A DNA stretch of 64,000 nt, from positions 1,798,001 to 1,862,000 of the forward strand of contig CM102283.1 in the NCBI GenBank assembly GCA_046563655.1, written 5' to 3'. Below are positions 3,018-61,607 of the stretch, piece by piece; the stretch's first letter is position 1, and each line of letters begins with the position of its first letter. A program made the translations under genes and the position numbers. Origin of the DNA: Yuukianura sp. NJ FZ-2021 (lineage: Eukaryota). A model generated the notes under the pieces. It was not told where the DNA came from. It did no database searches and saw nothing but the letters and a program-made list of their open reading frames with translations.

Positions 3018-3397
3018 GGTTATAGTAAACATAAGGGGTCCAATTTACTTAGAAATTTTTTGAGAGTGACATGACCTATGACAACCCGAAAATTGACCTC
3101 TACAAAAGTTGTTGGGCTTGACGAGTAGATCATTTTTTGTCATGTGACATATGACCCTGTGACCTTCCGTTGAGGTCATAGGGCAATTTGAAGGTGTAAC
3201 CTAACCTAACCTAACTAAATTTCAAATTGATCTATGACCTCAACGGAAGGTCACAGGGTCATATGTCACATGACAAAAAATGATCTACTCGTCAAGCCCA
3301 ACAACTTTTGTAGAGGTCAATTTTCGGGTTGTCATAGGTCATGTCACTCAAAGAATTTCTAATTGGACCCATTGGACCCCATATGTTTACTATAACC
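3018..3397. mobile_element. Foldback MITE, possibly Merlin-type
   Basis: Near-perfect inverted arms of ~175 bp starting GGTTATAGTAAACAT. 8-bp TSD TATATGAC at 3010-3017 and 3398-3405. Central spacer is a short (TAACC)n run. Confidence 0.85.
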
Positions 3398-5801: not shown

Positions 5802-13190
<7,389 letters not shown>

Positions 13191-13624
13191 GACCTACTTT
13201 AAGGCAGCTTCGTATCTTGATAATTTTGAACTTTTCAATGAATTATTCAAAATTTTGAACTTTTTTTTTCAAAATTTTGACCTTTTCCCGAAATCACAGG
13301 ACACAAGTGTCAGTCAGTTGTTGGAAGCTGGAGAGGAAAAGTATGAATGATTTGAAGAAAATGAAAAGAGATAGGAATCAATTGACATTTGGATGATGTC
13401 CATGTCATGGAAGGATCTTAAAAGTTAAGTTCATTTTGTTATACACTGACACGAGTTAGAATTCATCAGTTAGTGTCGAGCTTAAAACAAAATAAAGCGC
13501 GTGTGCCTTTTTGTTTAGTTGGTTTGATACTACTGGAATCAATAAACCGACTCAAAACTTCTTTTGCCTCCTTGGCATCATTTCAAATTTTTGGATACCG
13601 TTATGAATTGGATTACGGTGGGGC

Positions 13625-14727
13625 CTATTTCTTGTAATTCATTCGGACGAATAGACGCTGAGCTCTGGAAATCTTGTCTTCTCCAATTGCTAAATTCAGT
13701 GTTTCAAGTAGAAGTTGTTCTTCGGGTGAAAGGTCACACCGTGGTGATGGCTCTGGCTGGCTGTGTACTATGGACGGGTAATAGTGGAGGACGGTTGACT
13801 TTGACTTCGGAGTATAAAACTGTGATGGCGCTGCAGCACGGGCGGGTGGTGGTTGAAGAGTGTTGGCTTAGAATATCAGTACTGGCGGTGGGGTGGCGAC
13901 CGGTGGATTAGCTAAAGCAATAAGATCTGGCTTTCGGCTGTTTTTGCTCGGCGCACCCGGGTCTAAATTTGTGTAACTGAAAGTGTCAAGTATGTTCGGA
14001 AACCCATTGACTATTTGGTATTGGATGAAGTCGGATTTGGAGCCGCACGAAACAACCCGGTATCCACACGTAAGTTGACCGTTACTACAAAACGTGAAAC
14101 CAATAAAAAACTCAATGTTAAAAGAAACTGAACTTTTAGGAAACAGCATCAAGAACAACATTCCAATTGGTATGGTCAGACTTGCACCCAGTTCTCAACC
14201 ACCTACACTTCTCCAATGGGTACGAAATTGGGAACACTTCGCTCAAATACATCAATTATATATGAAATAAATCAATCAAATACAATTTATCTAACTCCGC
14301 CAGTCGTTGTTCCGCCGCAAGTTCCGTCTCATTATGCTCTAAACTATCCAATGGGACATCCAGGCAGGATTTCTCAAACATCTATGCCTAGCGAACAATC
14401 TATGCATAGCAAATTACGAACACAGCCAATAATTGGCTGCCAATTATAGTAATTGGCAATTCAAACCGAACTGCGTTGAGCCTTGCGATTCATTTCACTT
14501 CGAACGTATTTGAACTTTTCAGATTCAAAATCCAATATCCAATTTTAAATTCTACTTTAATTCTAGAGATACTCAATTTTTTGCATGCTGCAATGTAAAA
14601 ATTATGTTTAGCTGACGTTTTGCCCAGACACTCGACCACTGAAGATTTTAACTCTTTGTAAACACTTCTTTTTTGTTGAAAACGCGATCGCGTTTTTGAG
14701 ATTAATTAAGCTAATTGTAGCCTATCG
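13625..14727 (+). pseudogene. Eroded segmental-duplication remnant (Pro-rich gene exon + Abi fragments + Abi 3' UTR)
   Basis: Collinear matches to ~1503-1830, 4291-4665 (intron retained), ~4920-4960 and ~5400-5640. Continues after the Transib at 20834-20931, matching ~5636-5735. Confidence 0.9.
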
Positions 14728-14965
14728 CACTATGGTCGGATTTCAGAAAAAAAGTTCGGTCTTTTTTTGAAACAAATTTTAATCACAACGTTGCCCTTAA
14801 CAACCGGCTCGGTTGAAAGAAGGAAACAGTGTCCAATGTTCCATATGGTTTCTTTTAACATTTACCAGTTTATTAACTGAATATGAAGCAAAAAAATAAT
14901 AAACTAAATTTTCTTTTCTTTGGTTGCAGAGTCCAGAATTTCTAATTTTTTCTTAAAACTTTTCT

Positions 14966-16070
14966 TCATTTTCCTTCTCTCTTTTTTGATTGACCTTTGC
15001 CCATCAGTGCTGCCTTCCTACCATCCTTCCGCTCCTTTCTAACTTCCTTCTTCAAGTCGATCTCCAACTTTTTCCTTGCCGCTTCATTTCCACTCTAAAA
15101 AACAAATGAAAATACGATAAAAACACAAGCAATCACGTATTTATACACATTTAGTATTACATTTCTGACACGACATGCATCATCCTCTAGTTTTTCCTGG
15201 ACCATCTTATCCTTGATTTCAGGAAGGCGGATCGGCTTCTTTGGTATTTTAAACTAAAATTTCGAAGAAGTTTAAATGCACGTTTGAACTCAAGCAATCT
15301 ATTGGCAAGTTGAAGCATCGAGCACCTTACCTTTTTCAAAGTTGAGTTGGATGGTCCTTCCTGCAAAAGTTTAATACTTGATTAATAGTTTTTTGAAATA
15401 AATTTACTACAAAGCAACATCAAAATGCATAAGTCAAATTTCATAGCGTAAAATTGCGTGTTTTGATCTAAGTTGCGAACTTAATGAACGAAAACTCATA
15501 AATAAATAAATAAATTGCAAACCCAAATTAAACCGAAATTAATTTTTTTCCCCCAAACTTTACATCTTAACAATACAGCATAAGGAATACCAGCTAAAAC
15601 TACTAATGAAGAACTTATACACAACAAATAAGGAATAATAAGAAACAATTAGAAATAATTACAAAAGCTAATGGAAAGGTTGACTAGAATTCATTGTCGG
15701 ACGAATCAGTGTCACATACTTCTGCTGCAACATCATCTTCGTCATCCTCTGGCATATTCGCAAAGATCTCTCGAATCTCTTGATTGGATTCCTCGTTTTC
15801 AATTTCCCAGATAATATTATCAATTGCTGTAGACACGATGTGTTCCAGATCCAGTACCAATTCCATAGTGCTATCTTCGCTGATCTCCTCCAACATCTCT
15901 TCCTCAACCACATTGTCAACCGCTAAATCTTCATTCACCTCTACAGCAATTGCTGCCTCCATTTCTTCTGCCATCTCCAGAACCTCATCCTCCTCAGCAA
16001 ATTCCGGTAAGGTCTTATAAACCGACTGAATTTTTCGTTTCGTTGTCCTTGCATTTCCTTTAATACAGCC
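14966..16070 (-). CDS. Second, spliced gene inside the Transib: acidic exon plus small Lys/Arg-rich exons
   Basis: An acceptor at 16071-16072 opens a 128-codon E/D-rich ORF. Downstream in-phase GT-AG exons read EGPSNSTLKK|FKIPKKPIRLPEIKDK...RN|SGNEAARKKLEIDLKKEVRKERK...*. Joining of the two parts is not established. Confidence 0.5.
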
Positions 16071-16570
16071 CTGCGAATGCAAGCAACGTGAAATGCAATT
16101 AACAAAATTATGGTGATAAATCTATGCAAATCGTGTAAAACATGTTCAATGCTTAATTTTTTGTGGATTACCCGGTTACGATTAGAACATTCCCTAACCA
16201 CCGGCACTTTCGCCCACACGGGTTACTCCTGGCTTACGGTGCAACCCCACCACAACAAATTTTGGTATCATTTGCAGGTTGATGTTATTGTTTTTGAGAC
16301 GGCATTTTCCGTTTTGAACGTGTAAGCTGTGAAAACTCATTTTTTTCTACTACTTTCTAACTACGAATTTATTTATTCATAAAACTATACTCAACTTGAA
16401 ATTTCGATTAGTTAGGATGCAATAGCTGACAGCAAAGAATTTACTAGCAAAACACACCGGACAAACATATACATACATTGAAAATGAAAATTGAAACAAA
16501 CTGAAGATATCTGAAAACGAATTATAGTTAACTATGAAACCATTTACCAACGCCTAATTCTTTCAAGACT

Positions 16571-18865
16571 CTAGGAATATATTTCTATTTCTTCGGCGAC
16601 AGGAATGTCGTAGTCGAAATACTCCTTCCACTTATCCTCATCGTCCAAATCCGGTTCGTTCCAGGCACATTCGTCTTGATTGAGAGGGGGATGTGGCGCT
16701 AGCAGAAGATCCTCAATAATCGCCAATGACTTTCGCTTTGGATGACTTCTGGTGCTCAATCGCGACATAGAAAGACTGGGATCCGATGACTCCAAAGACC
16801 TGCACAGTACATCCCAGTTGGCGTCAGTTCTGCTCTTTTTACGACTATGGTGGAGTCGGTATTGTCGAAACAACTTATGTCGACCTTCTTGGCCATCTTC
16901 TCCCATCAATCCCAACGGCAGTGGACTATGTCAAAAAATCAAGAGCGTTAAGACAATCTTAATTGTTGGTTACCGTGATAAAAAATTGAAACATCTCCAA
17001 CCTTTTCTCCATCAAATCCTGTCCATGAATCAATATCTTATGCAATGTGGCAGGCATGTAGAACCAACTACCATACAAATCATGGAATAGTGAGACGGTG
17101 TCAGCACAGAGTGTTCCAAACTTGTTCGGCTCCACTGCGAGTTGGCACGTTAAGCAGCATAAAATCTTCTTGAAGTTTAACAACAAATTTCGATCGAGTC
17201 CAATGATTTTAGCAAATAAATCTACATCATCAAAAGCTCGTCTAGCGGTGTTTCCGTTATTTGAGTTGCCACCATTTTGGTTGGGGAAGTCAACACGTAA
17301 TCCAAAGTATTCCCACATATTCCGCTGAATTCGCATCTTCCGCTCCTTTACTTGTGGTTGCAGGTCTTGAGTGACTCGCCTGTATTCCAATAATGTATGA
17401 ATATGAATTCCAAGTTAAGACTTAACGACTTTACTCACCAAACTTGAAATGGGAGACGATAACTTATGTGCAAACAACACTCAAAGATCCTAATCCAGGC
17501 GTGTAAGGGTGATATTCCATGCTGAAGACTCATCTGCTTTGGAGCGAACTTCTGGGTTCCTATATTTTCTCTAGTGAAGTCAGTCGGATTGGAGTGGCAA
17601 ATTGGGCATGTTTGTGAAGAGTTTGTGTCGGTCAAATAACACAAAATTTTCCCGTCAATCATGGTGAGATGCAACTCGAACGCTACTGTCAATCTAAGTA
17701 TCAAAGTATCCACATTACAATTCTCAAAATCCTAAAGTATATCTAACGTCATAGCTTACACTAGGTTTTCAGCGATGGCTATATCAATAGGCTGTAGTTT
17801 ACTGATCTCCTCTTCTATTCGTCTTCTTTCTGATAGTACAAAGTCTTTAGTCTCTTTCTTGAATGCCATCTTTATTGGTCGGCAAAACAATGGAGACTGA
17901 GGCTTTGGATTACGCCAATACAAGGAATCCGTACTGTCAAGTTGGAGAGGAACCAATGATAGTATGAAGAGGTGAGACTCTTCAACGAATTCTCTTCCTG
18001 CTCCCTTCTGATTGTACTGGGACTGGTTACCAGAACCGTCCATTCCCCAGGCAAATGTCATCTTGGCAAACTTTTGTTGTACGTTGGACGCTTGCATTTG
18101 TTGGATAATAACTTCCTTTTGAAACTTTACAATTCTGGTACAGGTATGTTCGAGCAATGCAGATAGTTCAACTTCAGCCCCTGTTTCACTTGCTTGAATA
18201 GACGCGGCTGGCGGTCGACAAATTTCTTTGGCTTTCATAAGTTTATCATACGCAGGAAAAAGATTCTGATGCCCAGCAGCGTTCGTCACTTTCCGCAGTG
18301 TGCAGTATTGCTCTTTTGAGAGGGATAACTCAAGAACTAGCTTAAGAGCTTCTTCGTCGGTCAGATTCCGTTGGAATTGTGATTTGGACTTCCTAGAGTT
18401 GATGACATCAATTGCAGCGGACTTTTTTTTCGCCAGTTGTCGTAAAACGGCGGAACGAGCCTTGCTACACGGAGTTCCCAACTTCTTCAACGTTTTCGCT
18501 GTGCCTAGAAGTAGTACGTCTTGACTTTCTACTTGAGAATCCGAAACATGACCCACGCGACGCTTCTTCGAACTTAATGATTCACCAGTTGCACCAGTGT
18601 TTTCTCTGGCAAGATGCGGTGGAATCGTAACCTCGCGAAGCAACCAAGCTTCTTCGTTTTCTAGAAAACGCTCCATATACTTGCAGCTATTCTTCCACTT
18701 ACGTATAAATGAAGTACGCCACCGAACAACTAATTTTCGCAGCTCCATTTCGTTATTTTTGGAAACATTTTTCCGGATGTAGGGGCGTAGTACCCGTAGT
18801 GCTTCGGCTATCGCTTTTTCAGAAGGTGACCTAAGCATGATGAGATCTCGCCACTTCAAAGCAAC
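16571..18865 (-). CDS. Transib transposase (RAG1 core homologue), at least 4 exons
   Basis: WGMDGSG (D1), LTMIDGK (D2), CPIC, LHAWIR, NNGNTARRAF, LHKILIHG and GEDGQEGRHK (E). Three introns splice in phase with no internal stop. The 5' end is uncertain; a possible upstream exon lies at 19071-19146. Confidence 0.93.
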
Positions 18866-19352
18866 CTAATTTTAGCCAGAAAATAAAAATATAAACAAAA
18901 ATTTATGAACAAATTTTTCAGAGTATGTAAAACAGAAGTAGGTAATCTCTAGTTAAACTGGGTATGACAAACAGTTCGTCAATAAAACGTAAAAAGCCGT
19001 GAATTGCGCACGAGTTTTTCATTTCCCTAACCACCTGCACTTTCACCCGTACGGGCTACTCCTGGCTCACGGTATATCCCACCCTCAAAATTCTGATGTT
19101 TGGTTTTGATGTTTTGGCGGGAAAGTATCCCGCAGCGTGGCGCAGCCTTTAAAAAATTTAAGAATTTAAAAAACCCTAAAAAAGTAAACGAAAAAACCGA
19201 TTTCCAACGTTATTCGAATTTCTTTTGGCACTAGTAACATAAAATAATATATTGAAATTGAGAAATTGCATTTCAGTTTTTTCAGAAACTAAAATCTTTT
19301 TTAACCTTTTAATATATTATATGCATTGTATATATTTCTATTTAAAAATTCT

Positions 19353-19778
19353 CAGTGACATAATTGGTAACTTTGTAAGATGGATAAAGTGACATTGGAA
19401 CTCATAAAGTAGTTTTCGTAACTTTGTTAGAGGGACAAACTGACATGGAAACTCATAAGGTAGCTTTTGTAAGTGTGACAGATGGACAGAGTGACATAGG
19501 AACTCATGAAGTAGCTTTTGTAATTGTGACAGATGGACAGATTGACATAGGAACTCATGAAGTAGCTTTTGTAATTGTGACAGATGGACAGATTGACATA
19601 GGAACTCATGAAGTAGCTTTTGTAATTGTGACAGATGGACAGAGTGACATAGGAACGCATGAAGTAGCTTTGGTAAGTGTGACTGACCGACAGAGGGACA
19701 TAGGAACGCAAGAAGTAGCTTTTGTAAGTGTGACAGATGGACAGAGTGACATAGGAACTCATGAAGTAAGTGTGACTG
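19353..19778. repeat. 51-bp minisatellite (about 7-8 copies) inside the Transib
   Basis: Unit GTGACAGATGGACAGAGTGACATAGGAACTCATGAAGTAGCTTTTGTAA(G/T)T. It gives a 17-aa period in the ORF track. Confidence 0.9.
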
Positions 19779-21238
19779 AATTTTAAAGTTTTAAATTTGA
19801 ATTGTTTTGAATTTCGCGCTAATTTTTTGGTTTCTTCCATCCACTAATAGTTTCGTCCATTAGGAGCACCTTTCGTCCAATGGATATCCAGTGGAAGTAA
19901 CAATTAAGCCACTGGACATTTAAGCGTCCATCAACACTGATCACTTTCCTAAAACTGACGTCATTTTGCCAACCCTAACTTAAGCGGAAACGAAAGCAAG
20001 CGCAAAGTGAAATATGAAATAGACACATTACCATGTTTGACGAGTTTTGGCTGTTCACCTGGAGCGACTTGACTTTGACTGCTGACCTGCTGACCTTTGA
20101 CTGCTGACCCTTGAATGCTGACCTTTGACTGCTGACAGTTGACTGCTGACCTTTGACTGCTGACTCTTGACTTACCGATGGCTTTGACAGACCGATGAAA
20201 AGACTTAATTGACGACTAACGGGACAGACACAAAAGACAAAGAACAAGAATCTATGCTCTCCAACTTACGGAATTGTACAAAATACAAAATAATGGCAAT
20301 TGAGAAATGCAAAACTTGAACCATTAGCTTCACGGTGAATTGACAAAATAAAACATGAAATGGGAAATGGGGCATTTTACAATGACAATTGGATCTCCGC
20401 CTCATGTGACTTTCCGACCCCGGTCTATTACAATTGCAATTGCTTTGTAGTTTAAATTTTGAAAGTATGGATTTGGCGCGTTTAAAGTTTGTGACGCCAA
20501 ATCTCAGTATAACATCAACTTATGACTGCGAAATCACAAATTCGCAAATAATGATTATTGCAACCAACAAAATAAACAAGAATTTAGAGATACTTTGGAT
20601 AAGTTTTAGGCAGTAACTAAGCATTATGAGCCGATTTGCACCTCAAAATATCAAAGACCAAGTCTTCCAGAACGCTAATCACCCTTTGGTTTGTCATTAG
20701 AGGGTTAGGCTTTTTGAGGCCAAAAATCAATCGGTACGTCAATTTTTTGGTCAAAATGCGCTGATAAGTTATTTTGTTTACAAAATTTATTTGATTCCCT
20801 GAGAACCAAAAAATAAAATAAACAACCATAGTGTATCGGAAGCCGCATTCTCCCAAACACGAAATGCATCTTTCCTTTCGCAATACTTTCTTCTGCTTCC
20901 GTTTCGCAAAAACCCAATAAAAAGTAAAATTGCCAAAATGGAAATCCAAAAAATGGCAAACATTTTGAACTTTGGAGAGTTGAAACCGCTTTGAAAACGT
21001 GACAGTCTAAAAGTCGTTTGAATTCCACCGCTGATTTTTACAACTTCTTCGTTGTCTTTAGAAAGCAAAGGACAAGAAATGCTTTGCGAAAAACTTTGAA
21101 AACTTTCCATTTATATTTTTATTGTCTGTCTAAAGTTGACAGTGACTCAAGTAAGCCAAAAATTTTGGAATTCTAAAATCCGAATTACTTTTTCCAAAGT
21201 AATTTAAACGCAGTAAAATTGCAAAATTTTGAAAAATA

Positions 21239-23212: not shown

Positions 23213-23957
23213 TTTGATGACAAACGAGAAAAACACAACACCAAAATTGAAAAGTTCAAAATTTCTTGAAAAGTTCGACTCTTATAACTGTTTGTTCTGT
23301 CACACTGAGAATTCGGTTTGTTCCATTTTATGTTTAAATCACTATGATGATGAATTGTGATTTTCCGATACTGACTTTTAGTTGAAGTGTTTTTATCAAA
23401 GTGAAATTGCTTTCAATTGCCAATCTTTTGTTTAGTAGATGTGGCTCACATTCACGTGACCTTCAAGGTCACTATAGTAAAAGTCAAAAAAAAAGTTGCC
23501 GAATTTTACACGCATACCATTCCAGTGTTTAGTTTGCGCCCAATTGCAAAACAAAAATCCTTATGAGCTTTTTTTTTAGCAACAACAAAATCTAAAGAGT
23601 TTTTTTTATTTTCACTTTAGTTTGATTTCGGTGTTAACTTAACTAACCCGCACTTGTCCGTTCAAAAGTTTAAGCTTTTGAATTTTTTTTTGAAAATTTG
23701 AAAAAAATCATTTTAGATTTTGCTTAAGATTTTATTGCTCCCAAATGCATTCTCGGGCGAAACGCCTTCCTGAATTTGGAAAATTTCTGAATCGGATTGA
23801 AATGCGACAAACTTAGCATATCTGTAATCGGACAAACTCTTGAATAAAGGTAGGTCATAATTTGGATGATCGATTAACGATAAAACAGGTTCCTTAAGTG
23901 TTTTTCTTTGATGGACTTGATTCTGTTTGTGTTGTTGAACGTTTCCAATCATCGTTT

Positions 23958-24045
23958 GGGCGTGTAGCTCAGTTGGTAGAGCGTTCGCTTAGCATTTAAT
24001 TGGCTAGCATGTGAAAGGCCGTGGTTTCGACTGCCACCTCGTCCA
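23958..24045 (+). tRNA. tRNA-Ala(AGC) with a 15-nt insertion at the canonical intron position
   Basis: Identical to the minus-strand copy apart from 15 extra nt (23995-24009). G3:U70 pair and a poly-T terminator are present. Confidence 0.75.
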
Positions 24046-24109
24046 AAGTTTTTTTTTTCGTATTTTAAAAGTTAAAACAACATTATTTTGTGGAATTAAA
24101 AAAAAAGTT

Positions 24110-24182
24110 TGGACGAGGTGGCAGTCGAAACCACGGCCTTTCACATGCTAAGCGAACGCTCTACCAACTGAGCTACACGCCC
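24110..24182 (-). tRNA. tRNA-Ala(AGC)
   Basis: 73-nt cloverleaf GGGCGTG...CTCGTCCA, anticodon arm TTCGC-TTAGCAT-GTGAA, G3:U70 and a poly-T terminator. Confidence 0.9.
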
Positions 24183-24463
24183 AAGAGTTGTGAGTGGTGT
24201 TGCAAATTGTAGTCTTTGATGTTGGGGAGAAATTTTTTGGCGTTACCGACACACTTTTTGTTGTATAAGTTTACCCACGGGGTGTAGGAATTACGAAATT
24301 GAGCGGGAATTCAAAAATTTTGTTTTGGTTTTCAAAAATTTGTCAATTCAATCGTTTTTTCATTTCAAAAATCAAAGTTTATGTTTAAAGTTTAACATTA
24401 TTATTCCTAGTAAAACAACAAACCATAAAGTATTTTTAATCGATTGATCACATCCTTTCAACC

Positions 24464-27400: not shown

Positions 27401-30400
27401 TAAGTTAATCAAAAACACAAAGTAATCGATGACTAATCGTAATCAACATTGTAATCGATTGTTTTCGATTTTTTTTTCAAAAGCAACCACAAGGAAGCTC
27501 TTCGTCTCCTTTACACAGCAACGACTCCTCTGCCTGGTCCGAAAGCTGCATACAGCGATGAATCTTCAACAGTTCAAGCTCGGCTCTACAAAAATTTAAA
27601 ACTTTGGTCCTTTTATGCCGATTTGGAAGAGTCTTTCGGAACTTTCAAAACTTGCAAATCCGTGTACGACAGAATCATTGACCTAAGAATAGCCAGTCCT
27701 CAGATTATTATGAACTACGGTCTGTTCCTGGAAGAAAACAATTACTTTGAAGAGGCATTCAAGGCTTATGAAAAAGGAATTTCACTGTTCAAGTGGCCGC
27801 ATGTCTATGACTTATGGAACACATACTTGTCTAAGTTTCTGGATCGATATGGTGGTGAAAAGCTGGAGAGAGCGAGAGACTTGTTTGAACAGTGTTTGGA
27901 TACTGTTCCACCGGAATTTGCCAAAAACTTTTACTTGCTCTATGCAAAACTGGAAGAGAAGCATGGTGGAGCCAGGAGGTCGATGAACATTTACGAAAAA
28001 GCCACAACAGCAGTTGATAAAAAGGATCAGTACCAAGTACGTACACAAATATTTAAAAAAATTTAAGTCTAACTTGTTAACTTTTTCAAAATTTTTCAAC
28101 TTTTTAAAATTATGTTTTAACTTGTTTAACTTTTTTCAGATGTTCAACATCTACATTCAAAAGGCAGCGACGTTGTACGGTGTGACCAAAACCCGCCCAA
28201 TATTTGAATCTGCAATGGAAACGTTGAGTGACGCCGACGCACGACAAATGGGCATCAGATTTGCTGAGTTGGAAACGAAACTTGGAGAAATTGACCGAGC
28301 ACGAGCGATTTTTGCCCATACTTCTCAAATCTGCGATCCTAGGGTAAGAAATATCTTTAATTTTTTAATTACTAATCATACATGGACGAATGGATGGGAG
28401 TTAGTGCTTACTTTTTGGCGGAAGAGTTTAAAATCGTCTGAATTGTTTTTTAAACTTTTCGAAATGGAAGTCATCCGTGGCTTTGTCTCCCTTCTCCTTC
28501 TTTTGTGTGGTTTCAAGCTCCTCTGGTTCAGCCCCAACCACGACCACTTTTTTCTTTGCTTTTTCTGGTTCTGGTGCTTTCCGTTTCGGTGCATTCTTGG
28601 AAGAATTTGGTTCTTCTATGTTAACTAAATCCCAAAATACAATCTTTTTAGCTGGAGTGCATTGAATTTTTGAATGATTGAATGAATTTGTGTAAGACTT
28701 ACACCGGTTGTGCTGTACAAAATTAACGGCCATGTTGGTAGGTACGAATTGCGAAGGAAGCTCTTTCTTGCTCAAGCGATCTTTCAGTATCTTCTGTTTG
28801 GCTTCTTCTGTCGCTTCGATGTTGCGAATTTTTACTCTAAGAAAAATGTTAAGTTAGATCATTTGATAATGATTGATTAGCATAACCTAACTTAAGTTAA
28901 TTTGGTTAAGCTAGTGATTATGCTGGCGTTTATGTTGTAGTTCAGATTTGCAACTTACTCTATTCCAAGATCGATTTCTGGAATTCCACTAAGCATTTGG
29001 TTGGACAGCATTTCTTCGTTTTTGTGAACTCCGGACTTTCGTAAATACTCGGGTAGGGACATGAGAGCTGCTTCTTCTGGTGATAGGAACTTTGGTGACT
29101 CTTCGGTTTCCTCTGTCGTTTGTTGTGTAGCTTTCTTCCGCTCGTGTAATTTGGCTTCAATGTACTTTAACCTAAGTAGTTAGGAGTAATCAATTATTAG
29201 ATTTTCTACTAATATCAAGTAAGTTTTTAAGCAGGATTTGAAGTTTTACATTTCAGCGTCTTCGTCTCTTGTATGTGTTTCAGCTGAGAACTGTGTTCCA
29301 ATCCCAGTGTCGTAGGCATCGTCATCTTGTTTAAAGTTTCCGCTTTTGAGGGCGTCCATGTCGATCATTCCGCCAGTTAGGGTCTTGAATGGATCTGTCT
29401 GAAAGTTTGGGACACTTTAGTTGATAATCAAAGTAATCAATTATAGTCGGGCTACTCTCAAGATCCTAAGTTTTCTGTGGTTGGGAAAAAATACAACTCT
29501 CACTTCATGGGTTGCACTCAATTCCACTTTGGGCACCTCAATGAGTATTCTCATTGATCTGCCCATACCAGCCAGCGCGGGAAGGGTGGAATCCGTGAAG
29601 TGAGAGTTGTATTTTTTCCCAACCACAGAAAACTTAGGATCTTGAGAGTAGCCCGAGTATAACTACTAATCATAAGTAATCTAGTACTTGGGGATGAAGG
29701 TGCTTACTAAAAGAATTTCTTCTTCCTTGGCTACTTTTTTGCCGAGTGCCAACGAAGCTGCACTAACTCCATATGGTCTGTCCCGGAGGCGCTTCAATTC
29801 CTTTGCCATTTCGATCTTTTGACTAAAATGAAAGAAATAGTTGCAAAGTTCTAATTTTTAGTTGGTACCAAGATGTAAAAATTATGATGTGACTTGAATT
29901 CCGTCGTAAGCTATGGTTATGCTTACGCTAAATCAGCGTCTGACTCTTCTGTCGTTGACGGCTGAACGTCGCCAGGGTGTGGTTCATTCGAAGGACTTGC
30001 TTCCCTTTGACGTAGGTTTCGTCTCGCCTTCTTTTTGAATACGATTGGGTCGTCCATTTTTAAAACTAAAAAAAACGATAAGAAAACATTGAATTTAAAT
30101 TGCACTGTAAAGTTTTTTTTCCAGTTGGATGCGATAGCACTTACTTGATTATCTTCCGGTGCTCTGCTTTCGTCGGTTTCCTTTCTATTAAATTAGGATT
30201 AATTAACGTTTCGTTAATTCTGTTTGTAGATTTTCGAAAATTGCGTGCAATTTGAACCTTGAACGTTTACGAAAAAAAAAAAGTTTCGGCAATTTTCATT
30301 TTCAAAAAGTAAAACATAAAATCGCAGCTGAGAAAACATTCAATTTAATTTTGGCGCGCTTTCAATTTTGAATACGCGATGACACAAAGATGTAATCAAA

Positions 30401-41095: not shown

Positions 41096-41682
41096 CAGTG
41101 TTGGTGGATATCCACTTTTTAGCATTTCATCCAGGATATATCCACTGGATAAATGGATAAATCCGGATGAAATCCAGTTTCCGATGGACGAAATTCAATT
41201 TCGTCCGGAAGAAACCAAAAAAATCCGGATATATCCACCACTTTCGACGGGAGTGGAAGAAATATTTTATCCATCTACCAATACTGTGTGTATAACCTTC
41301 AGTGTTCCTGGATGCTTAAACGTCCAGTGGGTTAATTGCCACTTCCACTGGATGAAATATACCCCAAATGGACGAAACTATTATTGGATGGATGAAATCA
41401 CAAATCTAGCGCAGAATTTAAAAACTCAAATTTATAATGAGAAAATAATATCAAACCCCGTTTCTATCACCGTTAAAATTAATTGTTTAAAAGCCTTATT
41501 CAAAAACGATATTTTATCCTTTTTTCTACTGTATTTTCATTTTTTTAACGCTATTGTATTTAATTAATTCAAACCCTGCGGGCAGAGCTCCGGCCCTTTG
41601 GATTCATCCGTTTCGTCCATTTCTTCCACTGGATATCCAGCCGTGGATGAAATGTCGAAAAATTGAATATCCAGCAACAGTG
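41096..41682. mobile_element. Two adjacent CAGTG-ended MITE-like repeats rich in TGGATATCCA
   Basis: IR pairs at about 41096-41286 and 41300-41682. A related fragment lies inverted at ~19790-19939 inside the Transib. TSD not clean. Confidence 0.6.
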
Positions 41683-41946: not shown

Positions 41947-44900
41947 ATGGCTACTCCACGTTCAAACGCTAAGGTAAGAAAAAATCTTGGCTAGATGTTA
42001 ATTTAAAAGATTCATCTAAAACTCATTTTAAAATTGAGTTTTTTGTTTTCCCTTTTTGAAATTTTGATAATTTAGAACTCTTTTGAGGACATGAAAGCAG
42101 CACTGAAATTTTTATTTGAAGAGGAATACTACTCGAAACAATTCGGACTACAGAAATGTATTCCCAATGAAGAGGACTTTGGACTTTATGTTCCATTGAA
42201 AACTACGCAGAAGAAAGATGGCGGTTCTGAGGCCATTGACTTGCAGCAGAAAATTTTGGAAAATATTTCTAGCCCTGTTGGTCCTCTGTCAACCCTTGTC
42301 TTAGGAGACTCTGGAACTGGAAAGTCATGGTTAGCTCTAAAATTGACAAAGCATTTGTACGACTCCTCTCAAGAACAATTTCAAAACAAAATTCCTCTCT
42401 ACATTCCGTTGGGCAAAATTGAAAGTATGAGGAAGGAACTACCAAGTAGTTCCAAAAATGACATTTTGTGGAGCTACATAAAATTTTATAGTGATTCCTT
42501 AGGCTTAGATTCTGACTTGTTTGAAAAATTTTATACAAAATTGTGCAAAGCTGAGCTGATTCTAATCTTGGATGGATTTGACGAACTTGAAGTCAAGGTC
42601 AATCTCTGGGAAACAAACGAGTGGACAAGCGATAAGTTTAGCGATAGGCTTTGTACAATTGTATTTTGCCGCCCAAGTGCACTTTTGGATATTGACTTTT
42701 CAGAAATGTTTGGATTCTATAAGAATAGAGATAAACATATCCCTGATCGATATAATATTTCACTTCTAGATAAAAATGTTGTTGAAAACTATGTTAGACA
42801 GGTACCACAGTTTTTAAGTAAAATTAGGTATGATGAGAATTATGAAAGCCAAAATATGAGAGACCCAACTTGGATGATGACAAAGTCCGTTACTTCAAAA
42901 CATTGCAAGTGGGAATCAAATGGAGAGGATTCAGAGTACGAAGATTGGTTCTTTGTTAAATTGCCTGAACTACAAAGATTGGCCAGAAACATTTATATTC
43001 TAAAAATAATATGTCAACTGCTGCCAAAATTAGTCGAGGACGAGAGAATACGTACGGGGCAAAATAAGACAAATGACGAATTTATGGACAAATTGGAAGA
43101 AATTTGTAGAACGGAGGTTCTTCTCTATGACAAATTTACAGAGGCTTGGTTTACATATCAAGTAGATAAATTCAAACTAAAACCGTATGCAATTCAAAAC
43201 GTACAAGAAACATGTGCTAATTCTGTTTCTGATATTAAAAGTGTTCTTGTTCATTACATGGTTGGTTACGCTCAAAATCTAGCCATGCGAACTGCTCGTC
43301 TCAAAGCTGGAAAAATTTCAAACGGTGAAATTCTAGCATCGGAAACTTTGTATTGGAATCTTTGGACTCCTTGGAATCCAAACTCTGAAACTTTTTCTAG
43401 AGATAGGAAATTAGAAGACGAACTATTTCCAAACAATGAGAATGATACAGATGAGCATCGAGCTGCAAATCTCCAATATTTGAGAGATTCTTGTCTCTTG
43501 CGATGTAGTTCAGACAATCGAAGTTTCAGTTTTATACATTTGTCTCTCTTTGAATATTTTTTGAGTAGAGAAGTTTTTGAAAAATTTCGTGGTGCACTAA
43601 ATTATTATTCAAATTGGGAACGGAGACTGGCAAATGATTTGTATTTTCCAATCAATCAAAGAAATATTAATGATTCAGAATTTATTGGTATTTTGTCCAA
43701 TCTTGTTGGCAGAGCTAAAGTAGACAAAAATTTTCAAACACTTTTATTAGAAACTGTTAAAAAGTCTGCTACACTTCCAGGAATAGAGCAAATGGCTTCC
43801 AATGCTTTGACAATACTTAATTTAAGTGGGTACAGTTTTTCTGGAAAAATGACAGAGGATGACAATTTTCAAAATATTCAAGTGCCTGGAACCAATTTTC
43901 AAAATTCTATATGTGGTAATAGTGATTTCAGTGGAGCAAATTTGAAAGGTTCAAAATTTAGTCAAGGGTGGTTCCAAGGCTGTAAATTCCAAGGTGTGAA
44001 CTTTTCCAAGTGTTCATTTGGACAAATTGCTCCGATTAGTCTAGCTTCGAAAACTTGTCGTGTACTGGACATTCTATGTTACGCCGCAGATGAATTTTAT
44101 TATGTAGTCGTGTGTTACTATGAACTGTGCAGAACTGAAAAAGAGATTGATTTGTACATAAGAAACTACAAGCTTACCATAGATTTTGAAGAACAAGATT
44201 GCGAACTGATTTGTCTACAACAACAAATGGAGTATAAATACTTTTTCCAGTATTTCTTGACCAAAGGATCTGGAAGTGGAACTGTATTTCTGTTCATTTT
44301 CAGTGATACTAAAATACAGTTGGGCGAGGCCCATATTAACACAAAAGTTCCTAAATATTGGTACGAATTCAATTTCAACTCCAAATTGGCTTCTAATGAA
44401 ACAAACCTGCCCGCTTTCGACCGGGATTCTTTCTTGTCTTTTATGAACTCATCAAAATATGCACAAAAGTTTATCCTGTTCTGTTCAACAAATAGAAACC
44501 CAGAATTTTGTGACAAGGAAAGATTCAACCGTGAAGCAGCACGTAGGGAATTTCCTGAGAAGACAAAGCTGTACTGCAACAAATATTTTTGGATGCCTTT
44601 TGGAAACATCAAACTTCTCGTTTTCGTTGGCTATGAAGGGTTAACACATTTTACAGATGCCAACATTTTGGATAATATCAAAAACGTGACTTTGTTACAT
44701 ACTGGAAAACCTATTGTTGTACTACAAGAAAGAAGTTGTTTTGAAATTTTCTGGCAAACAGTTCAATCAGGTACACTATATTTGGAAGAAATTCTGGAAT
44801 ATAATTATGGAAGTTGTTACAACGGAAACTCGCTTCTATGTTTTTCAGTTAACGGTGGAAATAATTATTTCTTTGACTTATTAAACGACACGTTTATCGA

Positions 44901-47043
44901 TGTATTTGAGACGCCAGGATACTCTTCGAAATATCAACTTTTACGGAAATCACCTACTCAACAAATTATTTATTCTGACATTCAAGTCGTCAGCTTCAAG
45001 GAGCATAAATTCCAATGGAAATTGGATTCTGTCGTACGTCCTGTTGTTTATAGAATTTCTGAGAACCTGGATTTTGTTGTAAAATTAAGGGATGCGCTTA
45101 TTGAAGTATTTAATGTTGAGACTGGAATGTTATGCCAAAATGTAGTCAAAGATGCGAACACTCCTGCTACTTTCCTGAGTACAAAACACGGTACTGCTAT
45201 AACCTCTTATTTACTATATTTTTATCAAAGATCTTTACATTTTGAAAAACTGGAGCCAATATGGGATTCTACAAAGGAAATTGTAGTTCCCAAGGCATAT
45301 CCAACGAGGAAGTACTTCTCAGACGATGGACTTCTGTGTGTTCATGTTAAAGAAGAACGCAGTTCCTTTTCATTGGAGTTTTATTTTTCTAAAGATAATG
45401 ATAAATTTTGCAAAAATTTTGTACGTTGCTTTGAGATTGATATCAATTTTTTCCCTATTGATCATGCCGTCCTAATAACGAAAAACAAGCTAGTCATCTT
45501 TTATCACTATATCCAATCTCTAGATACAAAGAAAGAAGGGTTTAAGAAGTCCTCAGGATTTGATGAGCATTTCCTGATTGCCTATGATGCACAGAGTAGA
45601 CTCCAAGTTCAAATAGATGGTATCCCGTACGAAAAAATGTCATCCAGAAAATATGTAACCCATATTTCGCCAATCCAGACTTGTCAAAAACTGATTGTAG
45701 ATTATGATCACGAGTTGAGCATTTATGCTGTTGAAGAATTTCCTCTCGTAGGTAAAATGAGTTTGCAGCTGCTATACAGTTTTCCATTTAGAGGCGTTAT
45801 TGGTCGCCCATTGGTTGTACTTGATCCAAATTTTGAAAATTTAGTTTACATTTTCTCTAAGAGTAAAAGGATACATAATAAAAATTTTCAATTTTTGGAT
45901 CTGAACAAAAATACAGGCGAAGAACTAACCATCAACTGTAGCGAAAGATCTGACAACACAGCTACGAAAACAAAAAATTTATCGACAGTTCTATTTCCAG
46001 ATAAAATCGTTGTTGGTTACCGTGATTCAGGTACTTTCTACACAGTTCGTGCCATGCCATACAAAGAATTCGGTGTAGAAAATCCCGTACACGTCGTACC
46101 ATCCACAAAATTAGGTTGGATTGTATCTCAGTTTCCGAATGGGGATTTACATATTATAGAATCAATCAAACTAAAAACATTACTTGTTTTGCACGGATTC
46201 CATCCTGGCTGTAAATTGCACATAGTTGACCAAAATTCTAAACAAGTTCGCATTATATTGTTCGATTTGAGTCCACATTTAGCTTTTATTACTATCAATG
46301 CTGATTCTCTAAGAGAATATTTCGAAAAAGGTGGTTTGGAGAAATTCAAAGATTGGAAAGTTGATAGAAGTGTTGCTAGCTCGATACTCTCGTTGAAGGA
46401 AGTCGATATTTCGTATTCAAGATATTTGAACAAAAGTGATAAGTCACTGTTTGAATTTCATAGTCCGGTTGGGTCTCCAGCTGAGAACGAATACTATCGC
46501 CCATTTTGTAATTTGTTTCTACCTGTGACAAACTATGCACATTCTATTTTGAAAGTAGACAATGCACAGCCATGTGATTTGACTCAATTCTGGACAGTGA
46601 CTATCATTGCTAAAAAGCAAAAAATTAAACTATTTAAGAAAACAATGTATACTGCTACAAAACGACATTCAGCATTGGTAGTTGAAGGGATTATGCACGG
46701 AGGGCATTTCATCATTAGAGCTGAATTGACGCGACCTACTAAAGACATTGTACAAATTGAATGCCAGTCGTACCGAGGTAAAGTAAACTATGAGGAAATT
46801 ATACACAAATATTATGGAAAGCAAATTCAAGTGGATCCAGCAAAAGGTTTGAAGCTGTTGAAAAATATTTGGGTAGATACATACAATCCACAGTGGAAAT
46901 ATGATTTGCGATTTCACAACTGCAATACTTGGATTAAGAAGAAACTTGAAATATTGGGTTTCGGAAATGAATTTGACTCTAAAGCGTATAGATTCTTTCT
47001 TAGTCTTCCACAAGATTTTAAATTAGAAAAGTTTAAAATATAA
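41947..47043 (+). CDS. NLR-like protein copy 1: NACHT - pentapeptide repeats - putative beta-propeller - putative permuted papain-like domain
   Basis: A 27-nt exon 1 plus one ~5-kb exon starting at 42076. Walker A GDSGTGKS, Walker B LILDGFDE, FIHLSLFEYF, ASNALTIL plus pentapeptides, and C-terminal HSALVVEG...YDLRFHNCNTW. Confidence 0.88.
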
Positions 47044-47805
47044 GATGGTCGAAAAGAAGAAATTAATTAATAGACTTACAATATTTCTGTAAACTATAGT
47101 TTTTAGTAAGCTTTGCGGTAAAAATAGTCATTCTTTTTAATCATATTACAATTTCTTTGTTTACGTACCTTGATTTTAGTGCCTCAAAATTAAATACGAA
47201 GATCATTTTTTAACTACCTAGTTTTTTGAAAACTCTTTCCGAATAAAAATCTGCTAAGATTTTTTTTTTCTCTTAGACGTTGAACGATGTCATCGCTCAT
47301 GCTACGCGCGTGAACATCTCTGAAACCACTGGACCGATTTTCAATGTCTTCACAGATAAAGCGCACAGGATTGGGGGTGACAAATCCAGTTTCGGTTTGA
47401 CCGGAAGTGAGCAATATTATTTCCACTCATCATTCTGCGCGGCCAAATCCGAACAGAATCACACCCCCACCAGATGAGTCAGTTCTAACTTCATTTATTG
47501 TGTATAGCCGTGTTCCAAAACACTTCAGTTTACCTTTTAGAAGCCACTTTTAGTTTTTGTGATAATGTCAGCAGAACGTATGATCATTGGGATTTATCAA
47601 TGATAAATGATAAAAGAATGGGAGGTGAATGATAAATTAACATTCACCTCCCTATTTTCTTTTTAGCCAAACCTTCGTTTGCTTTTGTAAACTGAAACTC
47701 CGTAAAACTTTTGTAAGCTGTAAGATCAAAATTTTACAAAAAGTGTTAAATCTGTTTGTACCTTGTTGATTTTCAAGAGGGTACGTACGTAGTTTAGAAG
47801 CTGAA

Positions 47806-50800
47806 ATGGCTTTTCCACGTTCAATCGCTAAGGTACATCAAAATTTTGATGTTGATTTGAAATAACATTCATCTAAAACTCATTTTAAAATTGAGTTTTT
47901 TGTTTTCCCTTTTTGAAATTTTGATAATTTAGAAAACTTTTGAGGACATGAAAGCAGCACTGAAATTTTTATTTGAAGAGGAATACTACTCGAAACAATT
48001 CGGAGTCCAGAAATGTCTACCCAATGAAGAGGACTTTGGACTTTATGTTCCATTGAAAACTGCGCGGAAGGTAGATGGCGGTTATGAGGACATTGACTTG
48101 CAGCAGAAAATTTTGGAAGATATTTCTAACCCTGTTGGTCCTCTATCAACCCTTGTCCTAGGAGACTCTGGAACTGGAAAGTCATGGTTAGCTCTAAAAT
48201 TGACAAAGCATTTGTACGACTCCTCTCAAGAACAATTTCAAAACAAAATCCCTCTCTACATTCCGTTGGGCAAAATTGAAAGTATGAGTAAGGAATTACC
48301 AAGTGGTTCCAAAAGTGACATTTTGTCTAGCTACATAAAATTCCATAGTGATTCCTTAGATTTAGATTCTGATTTGAAATTTGAAAATTTTTATAAAAAA
48401 TTGTGCAAAGCTGAGCTGATTCTAATCTTGGATGGATTTGACGAACTTGAAGTCAAGGTCAATCTCTGGGAATCAAACGAGTGGACAAGCGATAAGTTTA
48501 GCAATAGACTTTGTACAATTGTATTTTGCCGCCCAAGTGCACTTTTGGATATTGACTTTTCAGAAATGTTTGCATTCTATAAGAATAGAGATAAACATAT
48601 CCCTGATCGATATAATATTTCACTTCTAGATAAAAATGTTGTTGAAAACTATATTCGACAGGTACCACAGTTTTTAAGTAAAATTAGGTATGATGGAGAT
48701 TATGATAGCCAAAATATTAGAGACCCCACTTGGATGATGACAAAGTCCGTTACTTCAAAACCTGGCAACTGTAAGTGGGAATCAAATGGAAAGGATTCAG
48801 AGTACAAAGATTGGTTCTTTGTTAAATTGCCTGAACTACAAAGATTGGCCAGAAACATTTATATTCTAAAAATAATATGTCAACTGCTGCCAAAATTAGT
48901 CGAGGATGAGAGAATACGTACGAGGCAAAATAAGACAAATGACGAATTTATGGACAAATTGGAAGAAATTTGTAGAACGGAGGTTCTTCTCTATGACAAA
49001 TTTACAGAGGCTTGGTTTACATATCAAGTAGATAAATTCAAACTAAAACCGTGCGTAATACAAAACGTTGAAGAGAAATGCGCTAAATCTGTTTCTGATA
49101 TTAAAAGTGTTCTTGTTCATTACATGGTTGGTTACGCTCAAAATCTAGCCATGCGACATGCTCGTCTCAAAGCTGGAAAAATTTCAAACGGTGAAATTCT
49201 AGCATCGGAAACTTTGTATTGGAATCTTTGGACTCCTTGGAATCCAAACTCTGAAACATTTTCTAGAGATAGAAAATTAGAAAACGAACTATTTCCAAAC
49301 AACGAGGAAGACACGGACGAGCATCGAGTTGCAAATCTCCAATTTTTGAGAGATTCTTGTCTCTTGCGATGTAGTTCAGACAATCGAAGTTTCAGTTTTA
49401 TGCATTTGTCTCTCTTTGAATATTTTTTGAGCAGAGAAGTTTTTGAAAAATTTCGAGGTGCACTAAATTACTATTCAAATTGGGAAAGAAGAAAGGCGGA
49501 AGATTTGTATTTTCCAATCAATCAAAAAAATATTAATGATTCAGAATTTAGTGGTATTTTGTCCAATCTTGTTGGCAGGGCTAAAGTAAACGAAACTTTT
49601 CAAGCACTTTTATTAGAAACTGTTAAAAAGTCTGCTACACTTCCAGGAATAGAGCAAATGGCTTCCAATGCTTTGACAATACTTAATTTAAGTGGGTTCA
49701 GTTTTTCTGGAAAAACGACAGCGGATGACAATTTTCAAAATATTCAAGTGCCTGGATCCAATTTTGAAAATTCTATATGTGGCAATAGTGATTTCAGTGG
49801 AGCAAATTTCGAACATGCAAAATTTGGTCAAGGGTGGTTCCAAGGCTGTAAATTCCAAGGTGTGAACTTTTCGAAATGTTCATTTGGACAAATTGCGCCA
49901 ATTAGTTTAGCTTCCAAAACATGCCAGGTAGTGGATATTTTGTGTTACGCCGAAGATGAATTTTATTATGTAGCCGTGTGTTACCATGAACCATGCAGAA
50001 GTGAAAAAGTTGTTGATTTGTACATAAAAAATTACAAGCTGACGACAGATTTTGAACAACAGGAATGCAAACTAATTTGTCTAGATCAACAACTGGAGTA
50101 TAATGAATACTATTTCCGGTATTTCTTGACAAAAGGGTGTGGTAATGTATTTCTCTTCATTTTCAGCGATACAAAAATACAATTGGCACACCGTAATATT
50201 TACACAAATGTTCCTAAATATTGGTACGAATTCAATTTCAATTCCAAATTGGCTTCTAATGAAAAAGACGTGCCCGTCTTCCAATGGGATTCTTTCTTGC
50301 ATTTCATGAACTCATCAAAATATGCACAAAAGTTTATCTTATTCTATTCGATAAATAGAAACCCAGAATTTTGTGACAAGGAAAGATTCAATCGTGAAGC
50401 AGAAAGTAGACAATTTCCTGAGAAGACAAAGCTGTACTGCAACAAATATTTTTGGATGCCTTTTGGAAACATCAAACTTCTTGTTTCCGTTGGGTTTGAA
50501 GGCGTAAAACATTTTGCAGATGCTTTTCGATAATATCAAAAACGTAACTTTGTTACATAATGAAAAACCTACTGTTTTAATACAAGAAAACAGTTGTTTT
50601 GAAATTTTCTGGCAAACAGTTCAATCGTCTGATATAGTACAACAAGACATAAGTTTGCAAGAAGTTGTGGTATATAATGATGGAAATTGTGACAACGAAA
50701 ACTCGCTTCTCTGGTTATCATTTGATGGCGTATATAATTATTTTTTTAACTTATTAAGTGACACGTTTCTGGATGTATTTGAAATTCCAGATGGATACTC

Positions 50801-55311: not shown

Positions 55312-55423
55312 AAAGTTAACAACAATCTTCAACTTAAAAATTTTTAAAAAACAGCATTCCAAAAAAGTGTAATTTTATAAACTTTTTCAAAAATTTGAAA
55401 AAATATTTTGTACTTTCCTTGCT

Positions 55424-61314: not shown

Positions 61315-61607
61315 ACTGATAATGCCTGTGCAGCTTTTAATGAGCTTTACGGTAAAAATAGTCATTCCTTTTACTTGTTGGTCAGTAATGCTGATTAGGA
61401 AATTTTTAAGTAACCATGTTTATGTTAGTATAGTAGAATTATAACTGATTTGGTAAGTAAGTAAATTATTACAACAACTTGGTTTAATATAAATTGTGCT
61501 TAGTTAGTATTTATAGATGAAAATTATAGTTACTCTGTAAAAAGTTAGGTTGAATATTTTTTGTCAATATGTGTATAATAAAAGCAGAATACTGAAAATT
61601 CAGAACG

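Follow-up and report, generated by a model that had tools for sequence, protein, structure and literature searches.

Transib is the transposon family from which the antibody-shuffling enzyme arose, and a member with two unlike ends raises the question of whether it can serve as a model for the asymmetric end recognition of RAG. Such an element lies on the 64,000-nucleotide stretch of Yuukianura sp. NJ FZ-2021 DNA analysed here (hereafter the window), and the original prediction read it as a complete, possibly active Transib with RSS-like ends and a useful comparator. We find that it is not a RAG-like 12/23 system, and that, besides its transposase, it carries two additional coding units, both under purifying selection (dN/dS 0.05–0.25).

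Results

The element is a 6,106-bp Transib bordered by exact copies of the TSD TATCG (14723–14727 and 20834–20838, plus strand), and its perfect inverted repeat, CACTATGGT, measures 9 bp, both as predicted. The expected intact spliced DDE frame is also found: a 688-aa transposase on the minus strand, open throughout, with the catalytic triad D267, D373 and E584. Its main exon (17760–18865; acceptor at 18866, first ATG at 18838) encodes an N-terminal helical domain, an NBD-equivalent region without GRP, and D267; exon 2 (17439–17693) contains D373 and C389-x2-C392, exon 3 (17002–17379) H558 and H563, and exon 4 (16571–16925) E584, an acidic tail and the stop. Twelve splice combinations stayed open, and the chosen one places the introns as in three relatives. 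The second D and the E are 211 aa apart, within the 206–214 aa of Transib (PMC1131882), and the 5-bp TSD and the CAC termini with an RSS-like heptamer are likewise Transib traits. The ~38-bp TIR with a nonamer-like block at 23 bp that most Transib families have is missing here, which is not disqualifying because this trait is described as variable (PMC9435367, bioRxiv 10.64898/2026.08.26.747230).

The top-ranking PDB match is HzTransib, whether by sequence (E 3e-37 and 2e-18), by profile (5e-102) or by fold search (E 5e-16, 38% identity), and exon 3 aligns to it with one gap. Among longer proteins, a word-based search started from transposase exon 1 gave no matches, where HMMER returned 2,172. 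The window element, L071, L087 and L088 form one clade with support 100 and have three intron positions in common; the tree, made with FastTree, comprises 51 sequences, 8 of them from loci and the other 43 being those of the 150 proteins listed that have at least 640 aa, and leaves aside the partial L074 and L089 as well as HzTransib, RAG1L and ProtoRAG. The transposase has evolved at a dN/dS of 0.06–0.10, and the CCGHC tail pattern is absent from the window protein and from the three other clade members. We regard the element as probably a Transib of the HzTransib type, autonomous and with introns, that belongs to a distinct clade with extra genes, a judgement that covers both its anatomy and its family.

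What distinguishes the two ends? Because the transposase is on the minus strand, the window-left end, previously called 12-RSS-like, is the 3' end of the element (14728–14790, plus strand). It reads CACTATG + 12 bp + AAAAAAAGT, with the heptamer at 14728–14734, an A-block at 14747–14755 and the subterminal sequence TTTTGAAACAAA at 14765–14776, and the predicted conservation of this layout in the relative at 11993 is confirmed. The 5' end (20771–20833, minus strand) has a heptamer, a T-rich block and the subterminal sequence TTTTGTAAACAAA at 20785–20773, and its conservation extends ~370 bp inward. Heptamers are CACTATG or CACAGTG, with a block conservation of 0.92–0.95. Behind its 12-bp spacer the A-block matches the RSS nonamer at 5–7 of 9 positions in 25 of 25 copies; the window-right end has no nonamer in any of the 25, with 0–2 of 9 matches at spacer 12 and 1–3 of 9 at spacer 23 (1.3–1.5 of 9 for the latter). 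The asymmetry and the nonamer-free right end are thus borne out, and the position conservation of the A-block, set beforehand as a test, held in all 25 copies and in a sister family. As a match in one copy the A-block is weak (6/9, equalled by 6/9 at spacer 10), and ~2% of the 9-mers across the whole window reach 6/9 against the nonamer; it stands out from chance solely because it is conserved across copies. That conservation, 0.87 vs 0.85 for the spacer, is no better than that of its neighbours. Against the AAAAAAATC consensus of PMC1131882 the A-block scores a mean of 6.3 of 9.

Could the 3' end be the equivalent of a 12-RSS, its nonamer read by the NBD as in RAG1, with transposition requiring unlike ends? 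The constant A-block at 12 bp fits such a scheme, as does ACAAACAAC, which lies exactly 12 bp from the heptamer on the corresponding end of the sister family (mean 6.5/9, 15 copies). HzTransib favours the 12RSS and is sensitive to nonamer position, according to PMC4840297; Foldseek alignments are ~80 columns longer to NBD-bearing RAG1 chains than to chains without the NBD; and every paired copy retains one end of each kind. An internal deletion would likewise yield one end of each kind, however, and the sister family has A-blocks at both ends (11 and 12 bp). Moreover, the opposite end is without a nonamer at either spacing, nonamer C2 occurs in 4/25 copies and C8-C9 in 0/25, and the GRP motif (G[RK]P N-terminal to the first catalytic D) is missing from 4/4 clade members, although 34 of the 43 long relatives among the matches listed have it. 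We consider this scheme quite improbable. Three Transib neighbours in the genome with 22–24-bp blocks do carry GRP. With no 23-type partner, with the C positions missing and with GRP missing, the use of the element as a model of RAG-type asymmetric recognition is not supported. Its standing as a fresh comparator is not supported either, as cleaner RSS12/RSS23 Transib ends are already published (PMC1131882, PMC9435367); Transib ends that are asymmetric and RSS-like were first published in 2005, so that asymmetry of this kind is known and ordinary.

A functional asymmetry could also reside in a common subterminal site, TTTTG(T)AAACAAACT, predicted to be bound by the N-terminal helical domain. 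This site lies 30 bp from the heptamer at the 3' end and 41 bp at the 5' end, one helical turn apart, compare 12/23. In 7/7 copies tested, the best local alignment of one end with the other falls on this site, its position is constant within 1–2 bp in nearly all copies (conservation 0.87–0.93), and the transposase has a confidently predicted extra helical domain at residues 1–75 of the main exon. The site is AT-rich, however, and the consensus pair is not significant (p 0.07; 0.007–0.31 per copy), so that we hold this reading to be rather unlikely. The site resembles a forkhead site, and could for that reason be a host-factor site. A further helical region is predicted at transposase residues 97–161; rigid structural alignment spans residues 163–369 only, and comparison of residues 1–164 with known folds gave no standout (best Z 4.8).

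How mobile is the family? A non-autonomous copy of 832 bp with TSD CAGTT (11993–12824, plus strand) has inserted into an ABC-transporter gene of the host, where it interrupts a coding exon that is otherwise open. About 30 short copies in the genome have both ends of the window element, and 21/23 paired ones have exact TSDs; the 23 TSDs are 38% GC, with no preference for GC-rich targets seen. L022 and L025 are identical over 564/564 bp with different TSDs and unrelated flanks, which shows that the short-copy family moved recently, whereas L013 and L014 are a single insertion duplicated together with its flanks. The full-length element is present once in the genome, and the relative closest to it shares 93.6% identity over 425 terminal bases; the recent movement is thus supported for the short copies and not for the full element. 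Completeness holds in part: both ends, the TSD and an open transposase are there, but nested repeats occupy ~19364–19941 and gene 3 is frameshifted. These repeats are a 51-bp tandem array (19364–19768) from a different repeat family, which occurs in inverted-repeat elements elsewhere as well, and a 150-bp high-copy interspersed repeat (19790–19941; 233 genome candidates, 40 scored); a 14-bp tandem repeat follows at 20073–20184 in the 5' region, and related arrays occur in short copies. The other close transposase copy in the genome, L070, is deleted and frameshifted. Besides the window element, the genome has seven Transib transposase loci; for L072 and L074 no ends with an exact TSD were found.

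The two extra genes and a repeated 59-nt motif had been overlooked by the original prediction. Gene 2 has a main exon of 128 codons (15684–16070, minus strand) with a conserved basic start followed by ~32% Asp/Glu; its dN/dS is 0.25 over 115 codons and 0.06 over the first 27, and its sole other match in the genome is L070. Gene 3, on the same strand, comprises a 10-codon exon between AG and GTAAG (15331–15360), a middle exon of 31 codons, phase 0 on both sides (15161–15253; homologue at G000 C2; dN/dS 0.05 against L070), and a lysine-rich last exon (14904–15094) homologous to an exon of L116 (44% over 36 aa, E 9e-9). In this assembly its A-run at 14982–14987 lacks one base relative to L070, and the reading frame is shifted over the last third as a result. 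Among host genes there is a host-like homologue of gene 3 with matching introns. Homologue searches with gene 2 and with an exon of the gene 3 homologue found none, and Pfam gave no match for the cargo exons, all of these being weak searches with short, low-complexity queries; no scanned cargo exon matched kelch or PHD. Homology between the acidic ORFs of the window element, L088/L089 and L071 is not demonstrable (p 0.4–0.8; p 0.04 for L088–L071). The cargo is on the transposase strand in the window element and convergent only in L071.

An alternative account of the locus would have the window element immobile now, the short copies moved by another Transib, and the extra ORFs functionless host fragments. 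The single full-length copy, the repeats nested in the 5' region, the gene 3 frameshift, the seven other transposase loci and the host-like homologue of gene 3 speak for it. However, the ends of other complete elements differ, L071 has its own short-copy family, the cargo has been subject to purifying selection while part of the element, and L088 and L089 repeat its gene order, which makes this account improbable in our view. The window element is most likely the transposase source for its short copies.

The 59-nt motif precedes both the transposase and gene 2. Copy 1 (19023–19081, minus strand) has a donor-like GTGAGC at 19070, 205 nt before the transposase acceptor, and copy 2 (16190–16248, minus strand; 59/63 identical to L070) a donor-like GTAAGC at 16237, with the acceptor of gene 2 following after 167 nt; no motif copy lies before gene 3. 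In this genome the motif occurs nowhere beyond the window element and its L070 counterpart. It precedes each gene in two metagenomic relatives (L088 and L089; one transposase 57% identical), and L071 and L087 of the clade are without it. The window-specific pattern gave 0 matches in metagenome contigs and the motif pattern 0 in viral contigs; 2 matches in prokaryote genomes (~0.5 expected) have no hairpin and were taken as chance. A protein-coding reading was rejected, as six frames, set against L070 and inspected by eye over the copies, gave stops or no consistent third-position pattern.

Seven copies from two lineages, from which the structure itself was derived, have 26/39 core columns invariant; the predicted hairpin has 94% of cells paired vs 29–61% in slid controls, and 2/10 pairs changed on both sides. 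Covariation is weak (18/500 shuffles reach the score and 80/500 the pairing), and single copies fold no better than shuffles (z −0.5 to +0.7, sense strand). Except for the last L089 copy, at a contig end, the motif always lies 145–219 nt upstream of an AG at which a long frame begins. An in-frame, ATG-bearing mini-exon is found in L088 (three units, one cut off) and in 1/2 units of L089, joining at a GT(A/T)AG donor 7 nt before the motif core; in the window element, copy 1 lacks an in-frame mini-exon with an ATG, and for copy 2 such an exon exists at weak donors only. Our best guess is that the motif is a conserved predicted hairpin at an apparent first-intron donor and would be a common splicing-control element, with a function in splicing being possible at somewhat less than an even chance.

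The motif could instead be a DNA element, part of a duplicated promoter or enhancer with an incidental hairpin: its copies are placed upstream of each gene, the stretches between units contain candidate polyadenylation signals, and the folding energy is unremarkable. In contrast, its start at GT donor-like sites, downstream of ATG mini-exons in four units, and changes that preserve pairing, including G-C to A-U and wobble, argue against a DNA element, which we judge unlikely. Processing of a polycistronic transcript by a self-cleaving or translation-initiating RNA would explain the repetition before each cistron, the 30 invariant positions, many of them unpaired, and the several ORFs without an early ATG after the acceptor. 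The invariant positions include AGUA opposite GAA, which we take to be a loop-E-like arrangement. However, in Rfam 15, a collection of curated families only, no match overlaps a copy of the motif at E up to 5 or 10; inspection by eye against consensus structures revealed none of the hammerhead, twister, pistol and HDV cores; and acceptor-like sites stand before each ORF. Such an RNA seems very unlikely.

Discussion

How might the element work? By analogy with known relatives, its transposase would cut at the CAC heptamer by nick and hairpin, as described for HzTransib cleavage and transposition (PMC4840297), and would insert with a 5-bp stagger. Each end may be read through its heptamer and end-specific subterminal DNA, the A-block at 12 bp being one such end contact and not a RAG-type nonamer. 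In the weakest step, to which we give a little less than an even chance, the motif RNA would fold at the 5' end of the first intron, overlap or abut the donor and gate splicing. Such a gate would switch transposase and cargo together, much as regulated splicing limits P-element transposase.

With splicing control as the preferred reading, the multi-gene clade may, quite tentatively, represent a transposon-encoded splicing or RNA-processing regulon, in which transposase and accessory gene(s) each stand behind a putative structured RNA at the first donor and partners, one of them host-like, were recruited repeatedly. If so, it would be a living parallel to the acquisition of RAG2 by a Transib, and a control device of this kind, with a conserved RNA-like element in front of every gene of a DNA transposon, would be new. 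To account for the origin of RAG, models require a single-gene Transib to have gained a partner gene and kept it; the clade shows such gain and retention under selection, with cargo that differs between members. Neither PMC1131882 nor PMC7204232, both describing single-gene elements, reports a Transib with a partner gene. As an asymmetric Transib, the element is one more entry on a list already in the literature, and Transib5 is the better 12/23 model. The genome as a whole, with Transibs with and without GRP and with varied end layouts, offers a panel for co-change of end recognition and NBD.

Finally, how does the element compare with known systems? It resembles HzTransib (Helicoverpa zea, PDB 6PQN) in its DDE core, zinc ligands, 5-bp TSD and CAC heptamer, and differs in its 6.1 kb, three conserved introns, 9-bp perfect TIR, two extra genes and repeated motif, and in an N-terminal helical region beyond the solved chain. 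Subgroup I Transibs have a CTT1 tail with the CCGHC motif, whereas Subgroup II groups with HzTransib and is without the alpha11-alpha12 region (PMC9435367); the window transposase shares with the latter the absence of a CCGHC tail. Asymmetric ends with an A-rich, nonamer-like block at 12 bp are shared with Transib5, Transib2_AG and TransibN1-N3_AG, described as 3–4 kb with one gene (PMC1131882); in the Transib5 group the RSS12-like end is the 5' one and the RSS23-like end the 3' one, whereas here the block is on the 3' end with none opposite. From the general description of Transibs as 3–4 kb and single-gene (PMC1131882, PMC7204232) the element departs in its length and its two selected extra units. 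Like RAGL transposons (ProtoRAG, RAGL-A; PMC7204232, PMC10462144), it combines a RAG1-type transposase with a second gene and asymmetric ends, and an acidic stretch in its cargo recalls the RAGL partner gene. Unlike them, its cargo has no kelch or PHD match and lies on the transposase strand, and its transposase lacks CCGHC, RING and GRPR/K, the motif that contacts the nonamer in the RAG1 NBD (PMC10462144). As in P-element IVS3, a cis-element at a 5' splice site would determine how much transposase is made; there control is demonstrated (PMC4647562) and acts through an exonic silencer in one gene, whereas the window motif, of putative function, is intronic or junction-spanning and stands before several genes.

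Anatomy of the element and recent movement

The element at 14728-20833 is a genuine Transib, and what sets it apart lies in its interior, where it carries two additional genes and a conserved motif that recurs before genes. As originally predicted, it is flanked by an exact TSD (TATCG on both sides), has a perfect inverted repeat of 9 bp and encodes an intact spliced DDE transposase, read from four exons on the minus strand as 688 aa without a stop. Twelve splice combinations are open; the one chosen uses the intron places common to L071 (the sister element in this genome) and the relatives L087 and L088. The catalytic residues are D267, D373 and E584, and the D-to-E spacing of 211 falls inside the Transib range of 206-214 given in the available text of PMC1131882. 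HzTransib is the top solved match by sequence and by fold, followed by RAG1; the fold comparison used a confident predicted model of the main transposase exon (pLDDT 92). A splice acceptor 27 nt upstream of the first ATG is common to the relatives, implying a further 5' exon. Look-alikes of the N-terminal region in the Atlas are mostly arthropod and offer no more than a lead. The element's neighbours are a cytochrome P450 gene on one side and an ABC-transporter gene on the other.

Searches of the 98.7-Mb genome with the two element ends gave at least 31 and at least 32 matches. Both ends were recognised in 23 of the 30 loci examined, with exact 5-bp TSDs in 21 of these; the other seven are the element and its close relative L070 (both longer than the stretch fetched), two loci whose terminus is damaged and three in which the second end is missing. 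The short copies are mostly 562-576 bp. Because two of them, L022 and L025, sit at unrelated sites yet do not differ over 564 bp, and the copy at 11993-12824 splits an otherwise open ABC-transporter coding exon (gene on the minus strand, start near 13190), a transposase has acted recently on these ends; the interrupted allele is probably null. The only other close transposase, that of L070 (3,971 bp), has suffered deletion and frameshifting. Two points count against activity of the full element: it is present as a single copy, and its nearest relative is 93.6% identical to it at the ends.

Elsewhere in the window, a unit of several kilobases is present three times in tandem at 42000-61400 (spacing ~5.9 and 8.4 kb, 80-97% identical), a palindrome at 23956-24184 has tRNA-like sequence in both arms, and a 145-nt direct repeat (1491-1635 and 13613-13757) is 86% identical. 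Long inverted repeats at 3018-3397, 10858-11001 and 29441-29662 are probably MITEs of other families.

Asymmetric ends and comparison with the RSS

The ends were compared in 25 non-independent copies (23 paired copies, the element and L070). At the 3' (left) end the RSS nonamer is matched at 5-7 of 9 positions with a spacer of 12; at the 5' (right) end the matches are 0-2 of 9 at spacer 12 and 1-3 of 9 at spacer 23. The two ends therefore differ as originally predicted, with the A-rich block position-conserved at spacer 12 in other copies and no nonamer at 12 or 23 bp on the right. The 3'-end matches consist of A only, C2 occurring in 4 of the 25 copies and C8-C9 in none, and the block is conserved at 0.87 versus 0.85 for the adjoining spacer.

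L071 (2574-7650, on contig G000 C2) is a second intact intron-containing Transib of 5,077 bp (TSD AGCCG), whose open 697-aa transposase is 46% identical to that of the window. It has its own family of ~432-bp short copies, two of which (L123 and L128) are identical, and a window-family copy lies 45 bp from it. Exact TSDs flank L071 and all 15 of the short copies retrieved for it. On the 3' end of these elements a ACAAACAAC-like block stands at 12 bp, and the 5' end has an A-rich block at 11 bp. The block is thus an old, real feature, but not half of a 12/23 pair.

According to the available text of PMC10462144, the GRPR/K motif of RAG1 contacts the nonamer. This motif is absent in all four clade members (the window element, L071, L087 and L088), which group with support 100; 34 of 43 long relatives have it. 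GRP is present in L073, L075 and L076, which have near-symmetric ends with blocks at 22-24 bp. These three loci (3.1-3.5 kb) are among five more Transib transposase loci in this genome, L072-L076; a LINE-like reverse transcriptase ORF adjoins L072, and L076 sits inside a large polyketide/fatty-acid synthase-like gene (family judged by eye) with long ORFs on both sides. In favour of the original prediction, HzTransib, which likewise lacks most of the NBD, is still sensitive to where the nonamer lies and favours the 12RSS, as described in the available text of PMC4840297. A second candidate asymmetry is a shared subterminal site that lies 30 bp from the heptamer on the 3' end and 41 bp on the 5' end; its position is constant, but its similarity between the ends is not significant (p 0.07). 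The proposed use of the element as a comparator for RAG-type asymmetric recognition is only partly supported: it offers asymmetry and a conserved block, but neither a 12/23 partner nor GRPR/K. The idea is also largely anticipated in print, asymmetric Transib ends having been reported in PMC9435367 and in the available text of PMC1131882 and PMC8355894.

Two cargo genes

Gene 2, an acidic exon (16070-15684), and gene 3, three small exons for a basic protein (15360-14904), lie downstream of the transposase, also on the minus strand. Against L070, a single pair of short sequences, the gene 2 exon has a dN/dS of 0.25, falling to 0.06 in its first 27 codons; two gene 3 exons have values of 0.05 and 0.25, and the transposase 0.06-0.10. 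A one-base frameshift within an A-run of gene 3 may be genuine or stem from the assembly.

Database searches found no protein family or homologue for either product. On G000 C2 in this genome, between host genes, lies a homologue of the last two gene 3 exons whose introns fall at matching positions. This small four-exon gene (L116 1100-1841, near 212-213 kb) encodes a basic protein of ~190 aa without a family match and stands head to head with an uncharacterised ORF; no transposase is matched within 10 kb, nor are TSD-flanked ends present. The simplest reading is that gene 3 would be a capture from the host. Gene 3-related DNA occurs at two further places in the genome. Near 15.40 Mb of contig G000 C4 (L117/L134), a weak match to the middle exon, with its donor at the same position, adjoins a copy of the 150-bp repeat that is nested in the element; a further copy of this repeat lies at 41299-41437 of the window.

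L071 has an acidic ORF convergent with its transposase, and the metagenomic relatives L088 and L089 have an acidic ORF on the same strand as well as the beginning of a third unit; these ORFs are only candidate counterparts of gene 2. Transibs are stated to have a single gene in the available text of PMC7204232. Our literature search for Transibs with an additional ORF, a captured gene or an RNA motif, with Repbase, most subscription papers and all supplements outside its scope, found none describing such an arrangement.

A motif repeated before the genes

The 59-nt motif occurs on the minus strand at 19023-19081 and at 16190-16248, the two copies sharing 88% identity over 51 nt. It is present once in L070, identical at 59 of 63 positions, where the difference at synonymous sites is 41-63%. 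Scanning metagenomes yielded 70 candidates, of which 11 became loci. Two of these, L088, whose transposase is 57% identical to that of the window, and L089, from the same assembly, each carry the motif twice: before the transposase in L088, and before each downstream unit. A relaxed pattern found only the three known places in this genome (control 2), and in 21 sources the only sequences picked up by a covariance model were the 7 copies it had been trained on, with nothing in L071 or L087. Upstream of the L087 transposase, an array of ~240-bp units with internal inverted repeats (580-1300) replaces the motif.

What might the motif do? Its core is invariant at 26 of 39 columns, and RNAalifold predicts an interrupted hairpin containing AGUA/GAA as an internal loop, which we take to resemble loop E. 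In this hairpin 94% of cells stay paired and 2 pairs are compensatory, but the control by shuffling is weak and no single copy folds with unusual stability. Each copy lies 145-219 nt upstream of the acceptor opening that gene's frame. Four of the units in L088 and L089 have a short exon with an ATG that can be spliced in frame from a donor 7 nt upstream of the core, and in L070 the donor for such an exon lies within the core; the window picture is less clean. The first helix would form on the donor or immediately 3' of it. From this acceptor spacing, the donor-adjacent ATG exons and the position of the helix, our best guess, still a tentative one, is that the motif would act as a splicing switch common to the element's genes. 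It ranks ahead of a DNA promoter element, which we think unlikely, and of a ribozyme or initiation element, which we consider improbable. The splicing control of the P element is reportedly an analogue of such a switch.
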